Of a stretch of DNA of 64,000 nt, positions 3,672-56,030 are shown piece by piece. The notes beneath the pieces are model-generated. The model ran no database searches. It was not told the DNA's origin and worked only from the letters and a program-made list of their open reading frames with translations. Position numbers and translations under genes: made by a program. The stretch is taken from NCBI GenBank assembly GCA_001781105.1, contig MFKV01000028.1, positions 10,428-74,427 of the forward strand. Direction: 5' to 3'. Source of the DNA: Candidatus Kaiserbacteria bacterium RIFCSPHIGHO2_01_FULL_54_36. GTDB lineage: Bacteria > Patescibacteriota > Minisyncoccia > Phycocordibacterales > UBA2100. Positions within the stretch are counted from its first letter, which is position 1, and each line of letters opens with the position of its first letter.

Positions 3672-4042
3672 CCTGCATTAGGCAGCCGCTCGCGCGCAAG
3701 CGTTGAGAGGAAAGTCCGGACACGCACATCGATCAGATGTAGTACGGTAGCGGGTAACGCCCGCCGGGGTAATCCTAGGGATGCGAACAGAGACGTCCGA
3801 GCCGAGAGGCAAAGACACCCCTGTCTGCCGACAGGCAGGCGCAAGGGTGAGCCAGTGTGGAAACGCATTGGGTGCAACGGCAAAAATCCTACCTGCGTGC
3901 AAGGCCGTGCTTGGTCGTGCCGCTTTGAACATTCGGTGTTCAGTGCGGCATGACTGAGAGAGCCGCGCGAGGTGAGTGGCAACATTCATCCCAGATACAT
4001 GGCTGCCCCCGACAGAATCCGGCTTATTGTGCAGTGCAGGCG
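3672..4042 (+). ncRNA. rnpB: RNase P RNA (bacterial type A)
   Basis: GAGAGGAAAGTCCGGAC at 3705-3720 matches the universal P4 5' strand GAGGAAAGUCCGGGC. GGTAGCGGGTAACGCCCGCCGGGG matches the E. coli GGGUGCCAGGUAACGCCUGGG region. GACAGAATCCGGCTTAT at 4011-4027 matches the P4 3' strand ACAGAACCCGGCUUA. No ORF is compatible. Ends are approximate. Confidence 0.85.
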
Positions 4043-5169: not shown

Positions 5170-5254
5170 CGGAGGCGGAGAGATTCGAACTCTCGATGCC
5201 TTGCGGCATGCCGCCTTTCCAAGGCGGTGCACTAGACCACTATGCGACGCCTCC
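5170..5254 (-). tRNA. tRNA-Ser (anticodon GGA)
   Basis: Reverse complement is GGAGGCGTCGCATAGTGGTCTAGTGCACCGCCTTGGAAAGGCGG...GGTTCGAATCTCTCCGCCTCC. It has a cloverleaf with a 7/7 acceptor stem, anticodon loop TTGGAAA, a long variable arm, and a TΨC arm GAGAGTTCGAATCTCTC. Confidence 0.9.
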
Positions 5255-12735: not shown

Positions 12736-12875
12736 CTATGCCCGGCAGGACAATTTCGAATTGCCTCGGCATGAACATTCACCAACCTATGACAAGAAAA
12801 ATCACTTCAGCAGTCTTACCAACCTTCCACAGGCTAACCTGCGGCAGGAATTATTCGAAATTGTACTAGCCGGGT

Positions 12876-14747
12876 ATGGGACCACAATCAACACAACGAA
12901 ACCCTTCCCCCCAGCATGGGAGGCCCCGTTCACGGCCCCCAAGTCGCGCTCCGCAAAGAAGTGGCAGAGTGCGGCATTTTGGCCGCTCCAATCACCCCCC
13001 ACGTCGCACACGCTCGCGCGTCGAACACCAGCAGTCAAAAGATCGCAAACAATTCATAGCTCCGATCGCGCCGCCCCCTGCCGATACCATCCGTATTATC
13101 CCCCTGGGTGGCGTCGAAGAAGTCGGGCGCAACATGACCGCCGTTGAGTTCGGCAACGATATTTTTATTCTGGATTGCGGATTTGCGTTCTCCGAAGGAG
13201 ATACGCCGGGAGTGGATTACATCCTACCCAACACGGGATACCTCGAAGAGCGGCGGGATAAAATACGCGGCCTCCTGATCGGCCACGGCCACCTCGACCA
13301 CATCGGCGGCATTCCCTACATCATCGATCGCATCGGCAACCCCACGATCTACACGCGGCGCCTCACCGCCAAGATGATCCAGAAGCGCCAAGAGGAATTC
13401 ACGTCCGCCGTGCCCGTCAACATCCGCGAAGTGGAGAGCGACGAGGTCATCAAGCTCGGCGCCGCAACCATCCGATTCTTCGGCGTCACGCATACGGTGC
13501 CTGATTCAATGGGCATCATTATCGGGACCCCGCATGGCGACGTCGTCTACACGGGCGATATAAAACTCAATCACTTGGACGGTGAACCATCGGATGAGGA
13601 GAAAAAAGAATTCGGCATCTTTAAGGATCGCAACGTACTTGCGCTTCTTATGGACTCGACCAACGTCTGGCAGCCCGGCTTCTCCATCCCCGAATCAGTT
13701 GTCTATAAGACCCTTGATGGGATCATCAAAGAGTCAAAGGGTCGCCTCATCATCGCGATGTTTGCCTCGCACCTCGAGCGACTCATCCGCGTCGTGCACT
13801 TTGCCGAGCAGTACGGCAAGAAGATCGTCATAGACGGACGTTCCATGCGCACCAACATCGAGATCGCGCGAGAGATCGGACTCATCAAGTACAAGGACGA
13901 CACGGTCGTTGCGGTCGAGAATATGGGGCAATATCAACCCGAGAGAATGATAATCCTTGCTACAGGAGCTCAGGGCGACGAATTCGCCTCGCTCGCGCGC
14001 ATCGGCAATAAATCACACAAGCACATCCGCCTACAGCCGACCGACACCGTCGTGCTCTCTTCTTCGGTCATTCCCGGCAACGAGCGCGCGGTCCAGAAGC
14101 TCAAAGACAATCTCTCACGCCAGGGCGCACACATCATTACCTACCACGCCTCCGACGTGCACGCTTCCGGCCACGGCAACCGCGAAGAAGCTGCGTGGAT
14201 CCACTCCCAGATCAAACCGAAATTCTTCATTCCCGTGCACGGATACCACTACATGCTACGCGTGCATGCCGATCTCGCAATCGAAATGGGCGTGAAGCCC
14301 GAGAACATCGCGATACCTGACAACAGCTCTGTCATTGATATTGTGAAAGGAGAGAAAATCATCAAGCATCCTTTCAAAGCACCTGCAGAGTTACGCGTCG
14401 TCGAAGGGCACACCGTAAGTGAGCTTTCCGATGTCTTGATGCGAGATAGAAAAGCACTGGGTCAAGAAGGATTCTGCGTAGTCGTTGCCACAGTAGATCG
14501 CCGCTCCGGCAAGCTGCACAAATCCCCCGACATCATCTCGCGCGGGTTCGTCTATCTGCGAGACAACAAGGAGCTCATGGACCAGACGCGCCTCATCATC
14601 CGCAAGTCAGTGGAAACATCGCTGCGCAATCCTCGCGCTGCTGACCTCGATGTCGCCCGCGAAGACCTCGCCGACGCAGTCTCCCAATTCCTCCTCCAAC
14701 GCACCATGAAGCGCCCGATCGTTATTCCGGTAATTGTTTCAGTGTAG
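12876..14747 (+). CDS. rnj: Ribonuclease J (metallo-beta-lactamase/beta-CASP)
   Basis: HGHLDHIGG motif, beta-CASP region and C-terminal domain. An unusual roughly 60-aa Arg/Pro/Ser-rich N-terminal extension precedes the conserved IRIIPLGGVEEVGRNM. Confidence 0.88.
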   Translation: MGPQSTQRNPSPQHGRPRSRPPSRAPQRSGRVRHFGRSNHPPRRTRSRVEHQQSKDRKQFIAPIAPPPADTIRIIPLGGVEEVGRNMTAVEFGNDIFILDCGFAFSEGDTPGVDYILPNTGYLEERRDKIRGLLIGHGHLDHIGGIPYIIDRIGNPTIYTRRLTAKMIQKRQEEFTSAVPVNIREVESDEVIKLGAATIRFFGVTHTVPDSMGIIIGTPHGDVVYTGDIKLNHLDGEPSDEEKKEFGIFKDRNVLALLMDSTNVWQPGFSIPESVVYKTLDGIIKESKGRLIIAMFASHLERLIRVVHFAEQYGKKIVIDGRSMRTNIEIAREIGLIKYKDDTVVAVENMGQYQPERMIILATGAQGDEFASLARIGNKSHKHIRLQPTDTVVLSSSVIPGNERAVQKLKDNLSRQGAHIITYHASDVHASGHGNREEAAWIHSQIKPKFFIPVHGYHYMLRVHADLAIEMGVKPENIAIPDNSSVIDIVKGEKIIKHPFKAPAELRVVEGHTVSELSDVLMRDRKALGQEGFCVVVATVDRRSGKLHKSPDIISRGFVYLRDNKELMDQTRLIIRKSVETSLRNPRAADLDVAREDLADAVSQFLLQRTMKRPIVIPVIVSV

Positions 14748-16538: not shown

Positions 16539-16742
16539 ACCCGGCTAGTACAATTTGGCATTGTTTCTGCCGCTGTTATCTTACCCTTAAACAACATACA
16601 TTGCTTACACATGATATATCGACTCTCGTGAGTATGGCCGCAACCAAGGCGATGCCAAATTGTCCTGCCGGGCATACGCCAATACTACTGCGCGCCGCTC
16701 ACAATGGCGAGGGTGCCAGTAATCTAGTATTCTGGGCGTACA

Positions 16743-28303: not shown

Positions 28304-29366
28304 CCGGGTAGGCTTCTTTGATTTCTTTTGCGAGGTATGGGTTCCACATGGCGCCGGTAGCGGTCATGACGAGGTCGGCGCCGGCGTCGCGGTACTCTTT
28401 GAAATCTTCTGGCACCGTGACTCCTCCGCTCCCTACGATCGCGTATTGCATGCCGAATTCTTTGCGCAGTGCGCTGAGGCGGCGTGTCATGTCGAGCCCT
28501 GCCCACTTCACCGCATGTCCGCAGATGCCGCTCTTTACGCGGTGTGCACCGGGAAGCGCTTGCGAGCCATCAGGGTTCACGACAGGCGCGGGGATGGTGT
28601 TGATGGCAGCAAACCCGTCCACGACGGTGCCGACTTCTTTTACTAATTCGCGCAATTCATTTTCTCCAAAATACGCGATTTTGATAAGAAGCTTGGTGTC
28701 GCCGATCTGATCTTTTATCGCGCTCGTGATGAGCCTTATTTTCGGCACATCGAAGCAAAGGAGCGATGCGGCGCCTTCGTTGGGGCAAGAAAAATTCGTC
28801 TCGACTATTTTGACGCCTGTGTCCTTGATCATTCTAGCGCCCTGTACCCAATCATTGACGTAGTCATCGTGTGAAAATCCTTCCCACTTGGTGCCTTCGA
28901 AGCTGCAAACGACGAGCTGCCCTGGCTTTGCGTAGGCGACGCAATCGCGCAGATCTTTCATCCAGATCTCTGGATCATACGATGGATTGCCGAATGAATT
29001 GGTTATCGAAAGTGGCTCTTTGTATTCGTTGCGCACCACGATCGGCTCGTTTGCCTTTTCGAGCGTGAGATCGCCTTCGATATCGGCGCCCAAGACGTTG
29101 GGCCATTCGTTGCTCGCGCGCACACGGCTGCGCACTGTCTTGTGTATCGGCACATTGAAACTCTTATCGAGCGCCGCTTTGACGAACTTTGCATTGAGAA
29201 GCGGCCCTGCGGGAATGCCGATCGGATACTCGAGTTTCTCACCCAAGAATTCAAACCGCGGTTCGCCGAGGGGCACGACGACGCCATCCTCAAAGCCATT
29301 GAAAGGGCCTTCCTCCCAATTTTCCGAGTAGGTCTTATTGGGGTCGAAAAAAGGCGCCTGGAGCAT
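28296..29366 (-). CDS. Dihydroorotate dehydrogenase-like (DHOD family, PF01180-like) TIM-barrel protein
   Basis: IGIPAGPL, NFSCPN and SGGV motifs. Start set at MLQAPFFDP (29366), which is preceded by GGGGTATACT-N6-ATG. Confidence 0.7.
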   Translation of the reverse strand: MLQAPFFDPNKTYSENWEEGPFNGFEDGVVVPLGEPRFEFLGEKLEYPIGIPAGPLLNAKFVKAALDKSFNVPIHKTVRSRVRASNEWPNVLGADIEGDLTLEKANEPIVVRNEYKEPLSITNSFGNPSYDPEIWMKDLRDCVAYAKPGQLVVCSFEGTKWEGFSHDDYVNDWVQGARMIKDTGVKIVETNFSCPNEGAASLLCFDVPKIRLITSAIKDQIGDTKLLIKIAYFGENELRELVKEVGTVVDGFAAINTIPAPVVNPDGSQALPGAHRVKSGICGHAVKWAGLDMTRRLSALRKEFGMQYAIVGSGGVTVPEDFKEYRDAGADLVMTATGAMWNPYLAKEIKEAYPDA

Positions 29367-29373
29367 GCGCACA

Positions 29374-29415
29374 GTATACCCCATGAGATATATTCCTATC
29401 TCATGGGGTATACCC
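29374..29415. promoter_or_regulatory. Perfect 17-bp inverted repeat GTATACCCCATGAGATA-N6-TATCTCATGGGGTATAC
   Basis: Seen directly, between the GGDEF gene stop and the DHOD-like gene start. Its right arm provides the TATACT element 6 nt before the DHOD-like ATG. Confidence 0.6.
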
Positions 29416-30033: not shown

Positions 30034-30092
30034 CTTGCAAGTATACCCCTTACCGCCGTTAGCAAAGGCGGCAAGGGGTATCGCCTTACGCG

Positions 30093-39595: not shown

Positions 39596-39774
39596 ATGAG
39601 GTGGAGCTGTTTTCGGAAGGTTTTGTGATGGGGAGTAGCGCGCTCCACATACCTATTCAAGTATTTTGCAAAACACTAGAATAGATCTCATCCCACAAAT
39701 CTTCATTTTGAACGAATTGACCTACGTACGATGCCGTGGCATTATATCGGCCGGCCCAAACCAGGAGGTACCCC

Positions 39775-41024: not shown

Positions 41025-41297
41025 CTATTGCAGTCTTTTGCAAAACACTAGTATAGATTCTGCGCGCGGTGTCAGTTTGTGACGGACAGCGCTTCCCTGG
41101 TTCCGTTTAAAAACGAGGCCGGCGATTGCCAGTTTGCGTACGTGATCCGAAGCATTTTCATATCCTATTTTTAGACGCTGTGAAATATCTTCGACCGACA
41201 GTTCAGGTTCTCGTTTTAACAAATCGAGGATTTGCAGACGCCGATGATTCGCAAATCCTTTGACTATTCGTTCCAGCTGTCTGTATGTAGCTGCCAT
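41025..41297 (-). CDS. ArsR-family HTH transcriptional regulator (about 90 aa)
   Basis: FANHRRLQILDLL...SVEDISQRLKIGYENASDHVRKLAIAGLV. Start at MAATYRQ; the track start is a TTG inside a repeated motif. Confidence 0.7.
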   Translation of the reverse strand: MAATYRQLERIVKGFANHRRLQILDLLKREPELSVEDISQRLKIGYENASDHVRKLAIAGLVFKRNQGSAVRHKLTPRAESILVFCKRLQ

Positions 41298-41353
41298 AGA
41301 TCGATTGTACTCTATTGCAGTCTTTTGCAAAACACTAGCATAGGAATAAAGAT

Positions 41354-47558: not shown

Positions 47559-48986
47559 CTACTTTTTGACACCCTGCAAGACGCTCCAGATATTCGGGTC
47601 TTGTCCGCCATCAAATTTGAATATAGAGATACCGCGCACGCCAAGGCGCTTTGCAAGATCGATCTTCTGTTGGATCGATTGCGCATCCGGCCAATCGAGC
47701 AGGCGGTACGTTAGATTGGAATTCTGCTGCGTCGCGATCTGGCTTGCAGCGGCAGCGGCAAGATTCCCCGATACGAGCGAGACAGGAGTCGAGGTCGGCA
47801 GATCCGAGAAGTACGTGAAGTACATCTCGCCCGCAGAGTTGCGCACCGGCGTGATGCCCCGCACTTCAGCGATCGGGAGCGCGTATCCGGGATTGAAGGG
47901 CCAGAGAATGGTGTACACATGCTCGTTGTTGGCGTAGGTAGTAACGGAGTATTCGTATCCGTATGTCGGCACCCCGATCAATATCTTGCTCTTATCAATA
48001 TCTTTTGACATGAGATTCACTACCTTTTCTACCCAACGCGGGTCAGCAACTGGCGCGTGAAGTTCCCCGGTCGCTTCGACCTCGGCTTTGAGCTTCCTAT
48101 CTATTCCCTGCTGATCATACGCCATGATACGCACGCGATCGCAGTACTTGTTGATCTCGGGGAGATCATTGGAGAAGATGCCAGCGTCTTGTGGGACGGA
48201 AGTACCGTAGTATCGGTCCTCGTTGGGTATGCGCGATTCGATGGTACACATGAGCAGCTTGGTACCGAGGCGCTGCTTGAGTTCCTTGAGGAACAGCGAG
48301 AAATAATCTTTTGTCTTGGCGTGCTTGAACTCGAAATCGATGTCGATGCCGTCGTAACCCTTCTCGTTTACGAGCGTGGAAATTTGGTCTATGAGCGTGG
48401 TCCGTAGTATCTGGTCGCTGAGGACATTGTGCATCACCTCGCGATCCCCCGACATAAGGGTCGGTATCACGCGAACGCCTTTTGCCTTTGCCTGTGCGTT
48501 GAAGCTAAGCCAGATGGCTGCATCCGTTGTCGAACCATTGAAGAGAAGTGTTGCGTCTCCTCGCAGCGTGTAGATGAACGGATTGACCTCTGTGAGCAAG
48601 TCGAGATGCGGCAAAGTATCTGCTGTGCCGGTCGCGACGCGCCAGTACGGGATCCATCCGGTTACTTCAAAGCTCTCGGCTGCCGGGTTGCAAGTGAGGA
48701 TTGCGATCTTTGCGCGCGTAATGGGCCCGACAGTCCCGACCGCTGAAATTCCATTGGCGCGTTGGAAATTGCGGACCGCTGTACGTGTGGCAGGTCCAAA
48801 GCGAGGAACCGACGCCGCCGTGAAGTAGCCCTGCGCCCTCAAAAAGGTTTGGAGTTTGGTGACTTCGCTCCCTGTTGCGCCAAATGAGAGGTTACGAGTG
48901 AACGTGACACAGCTCGATGTTTGCGCAAATGAAAGAGTCGGCACGAGGAACGCCGCTGTAACCAGCAAAAGTCGGACATATTTCAT
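47559..48986 (-). CDS. Secreted glycoside hydrolase family 18 (chitinase-like) with N-terminal peptidoglycan-binding domain
   Basis: Signal peptide. PG_binding_1-like LSFGATGSEVTKLQTFLRAQGY. GH18 DGIDIDFE catalytic motif. Confidence 0.8.
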   Translation of the reverse strand: MKYVRLLLVTAAFLVPTLSFAQTSSCVTFTRNLSFGATGSEVTKLQTFLRAQGYFTAASVPRFGPATRTAVRNFQRANGISAVGTVGPITRAKIAILTCNPAAESFEVTGWIPYWRVATGTADTLPHLDLLTEVNPFIYTLRGDATLLFNGSTTDAAIWLSFNAQAKAKGVRVIPTLMSGDREVMHNVLSDQILRTTLIDQISTLVNEKGYDGIDIDFEFKHAKTKDYFSLFLKELKQRLGTKLLMCTIESRIPNEDRYYGTSVPQDAGIFSNDLPEINKYCDRVRIMAYDQQGIDRKLKAEVEATGELHAPVADPRWVEKVVNLMSKDIDKSKILIGVPTYGYEYSVTTYANNEHVYTILWPFNPGYALPIAEVRGITPVRNSAGEMYFTYFSDLPTSTPVSLVSGNLAAAAASQIATQQNSNLTYRLLDWPDAQSIQQKIDLAKRLGVRGISIFKFDGGQDPNIWSVLQGVKK

Positions 48987-49203
48987 ACCCAGTCAGTAGA
49001 ATGTGCCTTTGCGGCAGACGCCTGCCGGCTGCCGCGGCTCGGTACACAAGCTCTCGACTAGAGCACTTTGCATGCGTTTATGGTTAGTTTTCATGGGTTG
49101 TTTATGCCTAAGGCACATTTCACTGCTGGGCATACTTCTCAACTTCAGACGCACCAGTATACCTATCACTTACCGGTATGCATAGGTGTGGGCGGGCTTT
49201 GGT

Positions 49204-49572: not shown

Positions 49573-49740
49573 TCGTATTTTACCCCGCAGTGAATGGTGG
49601 CGAAAGTCTTTTCTTGCGCCAGCACATTCATTTGGACCGCAGTGTCGATGACTGGAACGCTGAATTTCCCTAGCAACTGCGCTTTGCGCATCGCCACCAT
49701 CTACTGACGGGGTTTTACCACCCCGCATCAAACGTCTCAC
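49573..49740. repeat. Repeat element copy A (about 165 nt, inverted-repeat termini)
   Basis: Shares 33-nt 5' and about 60-nt 3' conserved ends with 55868-56030 (TACCCCGCAGTGAATGGTGGCGA...TCGCCACCATCTACTGACGGGGT). Confidence 0.6.
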
Positions 49741-55337: not shown

Positions 55338-55817
55338 TTATTTGGTACCGCCTCCAGCATTGGCATCAACAGATGCATTCGCAGAATCAGCGATGCTTGA
55401 AGCGTTTGAGCCGCATGCTTTGAGTGCGGTCTTGAAGCCCGACCATGCACTTTGCTGTGTTTTCTGCCAACTCTTGTGCGCGAGCCGCATCGCGCCGTTG
55501 AAGCTATTCCATGCGCTCTTTACTGCCTTCCTGATAGCATCGTTCCCTGTCTGAGTGTAGGCGGAAGCAAGCGCGGAAGCGCGAGTGGTATATGCTGCGG
55601 TAACGTCCTGCATGTTGGTCGAGATACCGGCCTGGAGCGAAGCTTCGCGCGCGGCGACAGCCGCTGCAACGCATGCGATGTTCACGCCGGAGGCAGTGGA
55701 TGACGCATGTATCTTTATCTGATTCCTATCCTGTAGCGGCGCTTTGTGGTCTCCGCCACCGAGCCCCCCAAAGATCGCTGCAATGCTTGCGGCCGCTGCT
55801 ACAAATATACTTTCCAT
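55338..55817 (-). CDS. Secreted Ala/Ser-rich hypothetical protein
   Basis: Signal-like N-terminus MESIFVAAAASIAAIFG. 159 aa. Confidence 0.5.
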   Translation of the reverse strand: MESIFVAAAASIAAIFGGLGGGDHKAPLQDRNQIKIHASSTASGVNIACVAAAVAAREASLQAGISTNMQDVTAAYTTRASALASAYTQTGNDAIRKAVKSAWNSFNGAMRLAHKSWQKTQQSAWSGFKTALKACGSNASSIADSANASVDANAGGGTK

Positions 55818-55867
55818 AGTTGTCGAAAATTAAAGTAATGCGTAAGCTCCACTCACGCACTCATTGT

Positions 55868-56030
55868 ACCCCGCAGTGAATGTCGGCGATAGTCTTTTCG
55901 ATATTGAGAGTTGTTTATATCGCACAAGAGACACTAATTTTCAAGATTGAGTTCCCTGGCGACTGCGCTTCGCGCCTCGCTGACATCTACTGTCGGGGTG
56001 TACTGCCCGCGCAGCTGCGTGGGCGCTCTC
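55868..56030. repeat. Repeat element copy B
   Basis: TACCCCGCAGTGAATGTCGGCGA...TCGCTGACATCTACTGTCGGGGT. Same architecture as copy A, with compensatory changes in the terminal stem. Confidence 0.6.

Follow-up and report, generated by a model that had tools for sequence, protein, structure and literature searches.

The window analysed here, a stretch of 64,000 nucleotides from a Candidatus Kaiserbacteria genome, contains two 130-bp copies of a repeat, and our analysis revealed that both are most probably members of a family of non-autonomous, MITE-like foldback transposable elements of about 130 bp in Candidatus Kaiserbacteria. Copy A lies at 49583-49712 and copy B at 55869-55998, both on the plus strand. 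The elements of this family (family 1) carry imperfect terminal inverted repeats of 21 bp (CCCCGCAGTGAATGnnGGCGA and its partner; end type CCCCGCAGTGAATGG), and the duplicated target is AT-rich, 4-5 bp long and of the form TAnA or TAnAA. In these genomes it mostly coincides with bases 1-4 or 1-5 of the -10 hexamer that precedes a leaderless gene (TAnnnT, 6-8 nt, ATG). The first-pass annotation of this DNA had offered a MITE-like mobile element and a cis-regulatory RNA as candidates. The former is borne out by dispersed copies in unrelated contexts, by site-specific duplications and by filled and empty orthologous sites.

The two copies, their relatives and a shared fold

A two-copy repeat does exist in the window, as first annotated: a 24-nt 3' motif is present in two places, where shuffles predict 0.00 occurrences. 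Copy A scored 138.8 bits and copy B 112.9 bits with the covariance model. Both copies had been found correctly, but their limits had been drawn too wide (about 165 nt, with flanking sequence included), and the true elements measure 130 bp each. They have in common a 5' block, TACCCCGCAGTGAATGnnGGCGAnAGTCTTTTC (also given as CCCCGCAGTGAATGnnGGCGAnAGTCTTTTC), and a 3' block, TTCCCTrGCrACTGCGCTTyGCGCnTCGCnnnCATCTACTGnCGGGGT. Between these blocks the annotation had seen a non-homologous core, which is exactly 52 nt long in both copies and about 30% identical. Each element is built from an imperfect terminal stem of 21 bp, a further helix of 4 bp, a small side hairpin and the core. In copy A the arms of the outer stem lie at 49583-49603 and 49691-49712, the second helix pairs 49605-49608 with 49675-49678, the side hairpin GCGCTTTGCGC occupies 49679-49689, and the core spans 49614-49665. 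Copy B has the same architecture with a different 52-nt core and the stem variant TC/GA. An extra resemblance between the right flanks of the two copies (CCACCCCGCA, CTGCCCGCGCA) is absent at other copies. Between copy B and the IMPDH-like gene, 20 nt past the stop codon of that gene, there is a GC-rich hairpin, GCCCGCGCAGCTGCGTGGGC (56005-56024), which probably marks the end of the upstream transcript and falls within the range first given for copy B.

In order to find relatives elsewhere, GTDB species genomes were scanned with the 5' motif and JGI metagenomes with the 3' motif. The GTDB scan gave eight matches, of which three were due to chance and five were real relatives: three in two Candidatus Kaiserbacteria genomes, one labelled Saccharibacteria and one on a 1.5-kb contig labelled Gammaproteobacteria. 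The metagenome scan gave 26 matches, 25 of them real loci and one a chance match. After removal of the chance matches (L004, L006, L008, L011) and de-duplication, 23 distinct family-1 sequences from 18 independent sites were obtained, two from the window and 21 from the scans, so that the repeat is not confined to the two copies first noted. All family-1 sequences beyond the window were found in Kaiserbacteria-like contigs. The contig labelled Gammaproteobacteria (L007, CAYTUI010000071) has flanks 98-99% identical to the Rifle contigs L020 and L028, and this locus is about 80% identical to the Kaiserbacteria-like L025; judged from these flanks, the label is probably a binning error. If the label of the Saccharibacteria sequence (L002) is correct, the element has crossed class boundaries. 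Copy number was low, a point against a mobile family, with two copies in the 64-kb window and two, by exact pattern, in one reference genome.

The sequence of the core is not arbitrary: the type found in copy A recurs at 10 or more unrelated sites with an inner identity of 70-97%, and other core types have short motifs in common, such as ACAAAG...TCCG.TTT. Copies at unrelated loci of different genomes are 80-97% identical. Length is 128-131 bp in 20 of the 23 sequences, with a full range of 128-146 bp; the two 146-bp variants differ solely by a longer, still palindromic side hairpin, the divergent L003 copy measures 135 bp, and indels are almost absent. At one orthologous site (L001, L012, L017, L023), inner identities of 97, 82 and 80% compare with 88-94, 81-85 and 73-80% in the flanks, so that the element copies are conserved like coding DNA, and the neighbouring intergenic bases could not be aligned. 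Such slow divergence with so few indels is unexpected for decaying selfish DNA, and points to a possible constraint on resident copies. Its possible sources include a requirement of the fold for transposition, a hairpin that insulates promoters, or a functional RNA.

We then considered the fold. The inner pairings noted from the two copies, GGTGGCGA/TCGCCACC in copy A and GTCGGCGA/TCGCTGAC with one G-T in copy B, belong to a longer 21-bp imperfect stem, CCCCGCAGTGAATGGTGGCGA / TCGCCACCATCTACTGACGGGG. Fold z-scores against shuffles were -4.3 and -3.9 on the plus strand, and -2.9 and -2.6 on the minus strand. RNAalifold and pair counting were applied to 21 of the 23 sequences, with L003 and L017 left out. 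Twenty pairs make up the outer stem, which includes one invariant G-U, one A-C mismatch and a bulge of a single base; the AGTC/GACT second helix comes next, and the side hairpin GCGC-TTT-GCGC creates a three-way junction. Pairing was kept in 98.2% of cells, compared with 94.8% in column shuffles, and fell to 28-56% when the partner was slid by 1-3 columns. Changes on both sides were found in seven pairs (20 cells), a level reached in none of 500 shuffles. The compensatory changes described from copies A and B are thus real and extend to more pairs, and the lack of covariation that the annotation had allowed for was not what the alignment gave. At the freely varying positions 15-16 the aligned set contains GT/AC, TT/AA and TC/GA, with GGTGA/TCACC in L033b, and L003, outside the alignment, has CT/AG. 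The orthologs L009 and L022 show a compensated change within the enlarged side hairpin (CGGCATGCCG vs CGACATGTCG), and in several copies with the copy A core type (L013, L030, L033b) this hairpin is broken. Among the single-sided changes, about 8 give G-U on the plus strand and about 7 on the minus strand, and A-C mismatches are balanced too; with G-U about equal, a transcribed strand is not indicated. Each search pattern fixed the outer 14 bp of one end (one end per scan), and hence the invariance of these positions is partly an ascertainment effect.

A small protein encoded by the element was rejected as an explanation. In most copies with the copy A core, both strands have a reading frame that stays open over about 39 codons, but substitutions are spread evenly over codon positions (19/18/18 and 18/19/18), and in-frame stop codons occur in several copies.

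Target duplications and insertion at -10 boxes

Directly outside CCCCG...CGGGG, 4-5 nt form a direct repeat that differs by site. Copy A is flanked by TTTTA at 49578-49582 and 49713-49717, and copy B by TGTA at 55865-55868 and 55999-56002. TGTA is also found in the L009 group and L034, TATAA in the L001/L012 group, TAGA in L002, the L007 group and L025a, TATA in L013, TTATA in L019 and L033b, and CTAAA in L030. The TACCCCGCA-like repeats reported around both window copies are present as written, but the repeat that recurs throughout the family is this shorter one. A flanking direct repeat of at least 4 nt was detected at 12 of the 18 independent sites; permutation of left and right flanks gave an expectation of 3.0 +/- 1.5, and none of 20,000 permutations reached 12. 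A clean duplication is missing at the other six. In the orthologous family-1 copies L015 14449-14578 and L021 297-426 there is none (GTCCCA on the left, TACCAA or TATAAT on the right), possibly through decay or through recombination between elements.

Three comparisons of filled and empty orthologous sites showed precise insertion with duplication. In L019 the filled site reads TATAA-element-TATAATTTCGCCATG, that is, ...GGGATGA-TATAA-[element]-TATAA-TTTCGCC-ATG, and its empty ortholog in L030 has a single TATACTGGCGCCATG, that is, ...GAATGT-TATAC-TGGCGCC-ATG. At copy B, ...GGGCAGTACA precedes and TACAATGAGTGC follows the element (minus strand, ...GGGCAG-TACA-[element]-TACA-ATGAGTGC), and the empty ortholog L047 has ...CGGGAGTACAATAGTAGC, or ...CGGGAG-TACA-ATAGTAGC, with a single TACAAT; the L047 protein is 68% identical to the product of the copy B gene. 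In the third comparison, L015 carries a family-2 element (see below) and a 31-nt mini-hairpin, each with a duplication, and L021 lacks both. The covariance model found no element at the loci orthologous to copy B in L043, L045 and L047. Insertion polymorphism, which had been suggested as a check, was thus seen between orthologs (copy B against L047) and not at strain level, where the intergenic region was identical in all eight contigs carrying an identical downstream protein. For the gene downstream of copy A no orthologs were found, and its protein is an orphan. The flanks of copies A and B share no homology past the element and are otherwise unrelated, which argues against the recent segmental duplication that the annotation had considered.

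The family-1 insertion at site Y (L030 7141-7271) is flanked on both sides by TTTAG, a repeat within which the upstream gene has its stop codon. The element stands where L019 (~2780-2860) has an 85-nt spacer with a 13-bp hairpin, and may substitute for a terminator-like hairpin.

Both window copies do lie upstream of minus-strand genes, as had been noted (ATG 49569 and ATG 55817). Copy A is 13 nt from the ATG of the 121-aa orphan gene, and the minus strand at 49582-49577 reads TAAAAT, a -10 hexamer 7 nt before that ATG, giving the order GGGG-TAAAAT-ACGAGAG-ATG(49569). Copy B is 51 nt from the ATG of the 159-aa gene 55338-55817; here the minus strand at 55868-55863 reads TACAAT, a -10 box, with the ATG about 45 nt beyond, and the orthologs have the same layout. 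At 13-14 of the 18 sites, a TAnnnT hexamer separates one end of the element from a long ORF that starts 12-14 nt away. The flank hexamers seen were TATAAT, TAGAAT, TAGACT, TACAAT, TAAAAT and TATACT, followed by 6-8 nt and then ATG or GTG. Orientation to the gene varied, with one end facing it at nine sites and the other at four or five. The neighbouring genes are functionally unrelated and include those for an orphan membrane protein, a CsaA-like protein, a P-type ATPase, a DsbA-like protein and RNase J.

The same extended -10 layout, TGnTAnnnT-N6-7-ATG, is common at window genes without an element. Many genes of the window have such a box 5-7 nt ahead of the ATG, for example upstream of 8256, 27216, 33648, 35160, 42737, 44791, 57118 and 62057, a pattern that suggests widespread use of leaderless mRNAs in this Kaiserbacteria genome. 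Since element-free genes have this layout too, the duplicated bases represent positions 1-4 or 1-5 of a -10 hexamer that predated the insertion. The gene retains an intact hexamer after insertion, with the element placed immediately upstream of this hexamer. Because the -10 hexamer lies between element and gene, the element is outside the transcript of the gene and not in its 5' UTR. The native TGn of the extended -10 and the upstream promoter DNA would be replaced by the GGGG end of the element, and expression of the neighbouring gene would probably be tuned by the insertion and not abolished. A -35 box supplied by the element was considered and rejected as too weak, the best candidate being TCGCCA (4/6 match, 16-bp spacing, one end only).

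Related foldback families and other repeats in the window

An inverted-repeat search detected a 143-bp element of a second family at 48988-49130 on the minus strand (covariance model 44 bits, E 1.5e-7), with the termini CCCAGCAGTGAAATGTGCCTT...AAGGCACATTCTACTGACTGGG and TATG on either side (49134-49131 and 48987-48984). The second TATG contains the start codon of a GH18/peptidoglycan-binding gene (47559-48986). A third family is represented by a plus-strand foldback element at 12741-12874 (termini CCCGGCAGGACAATTT.../...AAATTGTACTAGCCGGG), which has TATG on both sides, the right one containing the RNase J start codon (12876). Its second copy, at 16540-16672 on the minus strand, has CATA on both sides, and the left CATA, the reverse complement of TATG, marks where a minus-strand gene begins (16538). 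Orientation is uniform in families 2 and 3: in six of six cases one and the same end is turned towards the start codon, with the ATG one base after the element (gene-proximal ends TCTACTGACTGGGT-ATG and TGTACTAGCCGGGT-ATG) and a weak -10-like TCTACT or TGTACT 8 nt before it.

Mini-hairpins of 30-40 nt with CCCC...GGGG ends were found against or inside the -10 boxes (TATACT) of leaderless genes. One of 30 nt (CCCCATGAGATA...TATCTCATGGGG; 29379-29408) has TATA on both sides and lies within the -10 box TATACT of a minus-strand gene starting at 29366; another is at 30043-30081. The similar 31-nt mini-hairpin of L015 (~14396-14426) is an insertion with a TATAG duplication relative to L021. Families 1-3 and the mini-hairpins all have CCC...GGG tips. 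A bolder reading, which we consider rather unlikely, is that they form a superfamily of CCC...GGG-tipped foldback elements of 30 to ~165 nt, which would be moved by a structure- or promoter-dependent mechanism and retained by the host as portable modules with promoter or insulator function. The families would then have little in common besides their tips and the 4-5-bp duplication, would insert almost exclusively at the -10 hexamer or at the T-ATG start of leaderless genes, and would need no ordinary transposase that reads their ends. Such a superfamily would fit the conserved fold and length of resident copies, the constant orientation in families 2 and 3 (six of six cases at start codons), and the lack of a matching insertion sequence.

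Three copies of a 27-nt sequence with the palindromic core CTATTnnAGTnTTTTGCAAAACACTAG (39653-39684, 41025-41051 and 41312-41338; 0.00 expected by chance) lie within 1.7 kb in the vicinity of small genes, as possible operator sites. An Rfam search of the window also gave tRNA genes at 5170, 55212 and 62402. The class A RNase P RNA at 3673-4038 scored 111 bits against a gathering score of 100, and this narrow margin indicates that the RNAs of this organism are divergent.

Mobility, competing readings and known systems

Family-1 elements would be mobilised in trans, by a DDE-type transposase making a 4-5-bp staggered cut. The fold that is kept by compensatory changes and by a nearly invariant length of 130 bp, namely outer stem, AGTC/GACT helix and side hairpin, may be needed for transposition, through a foldback or single-stranded intermediate or through symmetric binding of both ends. 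Alternatively, it could serve a role tolerated by the host, for example by forming a hairpin that shields the promoter downstream of it from read-through. No transposase, integrase or reverse transcriptase was present among the 30 window proteins, all of which are housekeeping proteins, and none of the fetched loci contained an IS-sized pair of matching ends. Viral contigs gave no match to the 3' motif or the two-ended pattern, and distant BLASTN against a plasmid collection gave only chance-level matches. Several other classes of element were rejected. An attC site would have R'/R'' core sites (GTTRRRY / RYYYAAC), which are not found at the ends, and the neighbours are housekeeping genes with no integrase; a retron or bridge RNA would require a partner gene, which is absent; and IS200/IS605-type elements make no target duplication.

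The conserved fold could also be the functional product itself, that is, a domesticated or stand-alone structured small RNA, with the signals of mobility as relics of its spread. This view has in its favour the covariation in three helices, the length of about 130 nt that is held even where cores look unrelated, the enlarged side hairpin that is still paired, the low copy number, and the orthologous-site copies that are as conserved as coding DNA next to intergenic bases that cannot be aligned. Against it, Rfam gave no match to either copy at the gathering score over the whole window and none to copy A even at E = 10, and no promoter or terminator belonging to the element was recognised. Neither strand is favoured by the G-U counts, orientation relative to neighbouring transcription varies, and the side hairpin is broken in the three copies mentioned above. 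Moreover, arm-to-arm template switching in quasi-palindromes is an established process that can mimic compensation. We therefore consider a small RNA improbable.

The position of both window copies just upstream of minus-strand genes, the stable closing stem and a possible alternative pairing on the minus strand of copy A (CGGGGT...ACCCCG...CGGGGT) are what one would expect of a riboswitch- or attenuator-like leader RNA for downstream genes of small membrane or secreted proteins, the second candidate of the annotation. Yet TAAAAT and TACAAT hexamers lie between element and start codon and place the element upstream of the transcription start, orthologs of the copy B gene retain the promoter without the element, the neighbours across copies do not belong to one functional class, and either end may face the gene with no strand favoured, which makes a leader RNA very improbable. 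Least credible, and hardly to be entertained, is an origin without mobility, as locally evolved terminator or insulator hairpins or as a recent segmental duplication. Elements do lie between co-directional genes, and at site Y the element takes the place of the hairpin spacer of L019. However, copies A and B have flanks without homology, copies 80-97% identical occupy unrelated loci in different genomes, duplications are site-specific and empty sites exist, and no T-run follows the stem.

Kaiserbacteria are ultra-small groundwater bacteria, and CPR bacteria, whose genomes measure about 1 Mb, are regarded as poor in mobile DNA. A full-text literature search found no paper on MITEs in CPR bacteria. 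The duplications and the filled and empty sites imply that Kaiserbacteria have, or had until recently, active small transposons. As markers of -10 boxes and leaderless starts, the elements can aid the annotation of promoters and start codons, and they may account for contig breaks and misbinning, as in L007. Natural pairs of filled and empty promoters could be used to study the effect of upstream DNA on leaderless promoters. If the conserved fold is selected in resident copies, the family would exemplify how a transposon is domesticated in a minimal genome.

Among known systems, prokaryotic MITEs are shorter than 500 bp, with inverted repeats of 4-30 bp, flanking direct repeats, AT-rich intergenic targets and stable stem-loops (PMC10969869). 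Family 1 agrees with this description in its length of 128-146 bp, the lack of a coding signal, the 21-bp inverted repeat, the duplications, the dispersed copies and the filled and empty sites; a cognate autonomous insertion sequence, also typical of MITEs, was not found in the window, the fetched loci, viral contigs or plasmids. The Correia elements (CREE/NEMIS) of Neisseria are similar in being non-coding and 100-200 bp long with terminal inverted repeats of ~20-26 bp and a target-site duplication, and in lying directly upstream of genes, where the target junction contributes to the promoter and a transcript would form a long hairpin (PMC10969869). They differ in that their sequence is unrelated, they duplicate TA instead of 4-5 bp (TAnA/TAnAA), and they exceed 100 copies per genome, compared with a handful here. 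The host of family 1 is a CPR bacterium, the insertions are inside the -10 hexamer of leaderless genes, and its length and fold show strong conservation, with compensatory changes. Neither an IHF site nor RNase III processing is known for the Kaiserbacteria element.

The palindromic elements of Rickettsia and other palindromic repeats of reduced genomes are likewise 100-150 bp long, have spread in very small genomes and have no known cognate transposase. Rickettsia elements, however, are often in frame within coding genes, whereas those of Kaiserbacteria are intergenic, in promoter boxes, and have clear duplications. Tn3-derived miniature elements (TIMEs) have ends of about 38 bp beginning 5'-GGGG and a 5-bp duplication; a Tn3-type end was rejected here, the ends 5'-CCCCG...CGGGG-3' having the opposite polarity, with a 21-bp repeat and a 4-5-bp duplication. 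Insertion sequences of the IS1380 family have ends of the form 5'-CC ... GG-3' and 4-5-bp direct repeats at AT-rich targets. By this general likeness, IS1380-type elements are a possible source of the family-1 ends, which we offer as a lead only; an IS1380-like transposase or a full-length element with these ends was not found. The bcr1 repeats of the Bacillus cereus group, of about 155 bp, have a 5-bp AT-rich duplication (TTTAT) and a conserved predicted RNA fold, and to our knowledge no transposase is known for them. They resemble family 1 in size, AT-rich duplication, conserved fold and the lack of a known transposase, and differ in sequence, in host and in having one fixed target, whereas the Kaiserbacteria duplication varies by site. 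We regard the repeat as a new family of a known kind of element, and not a new kind of regulator, which stands out by its host, its insertion inside the -10 boxes of leaderless genes and its conserved fold.
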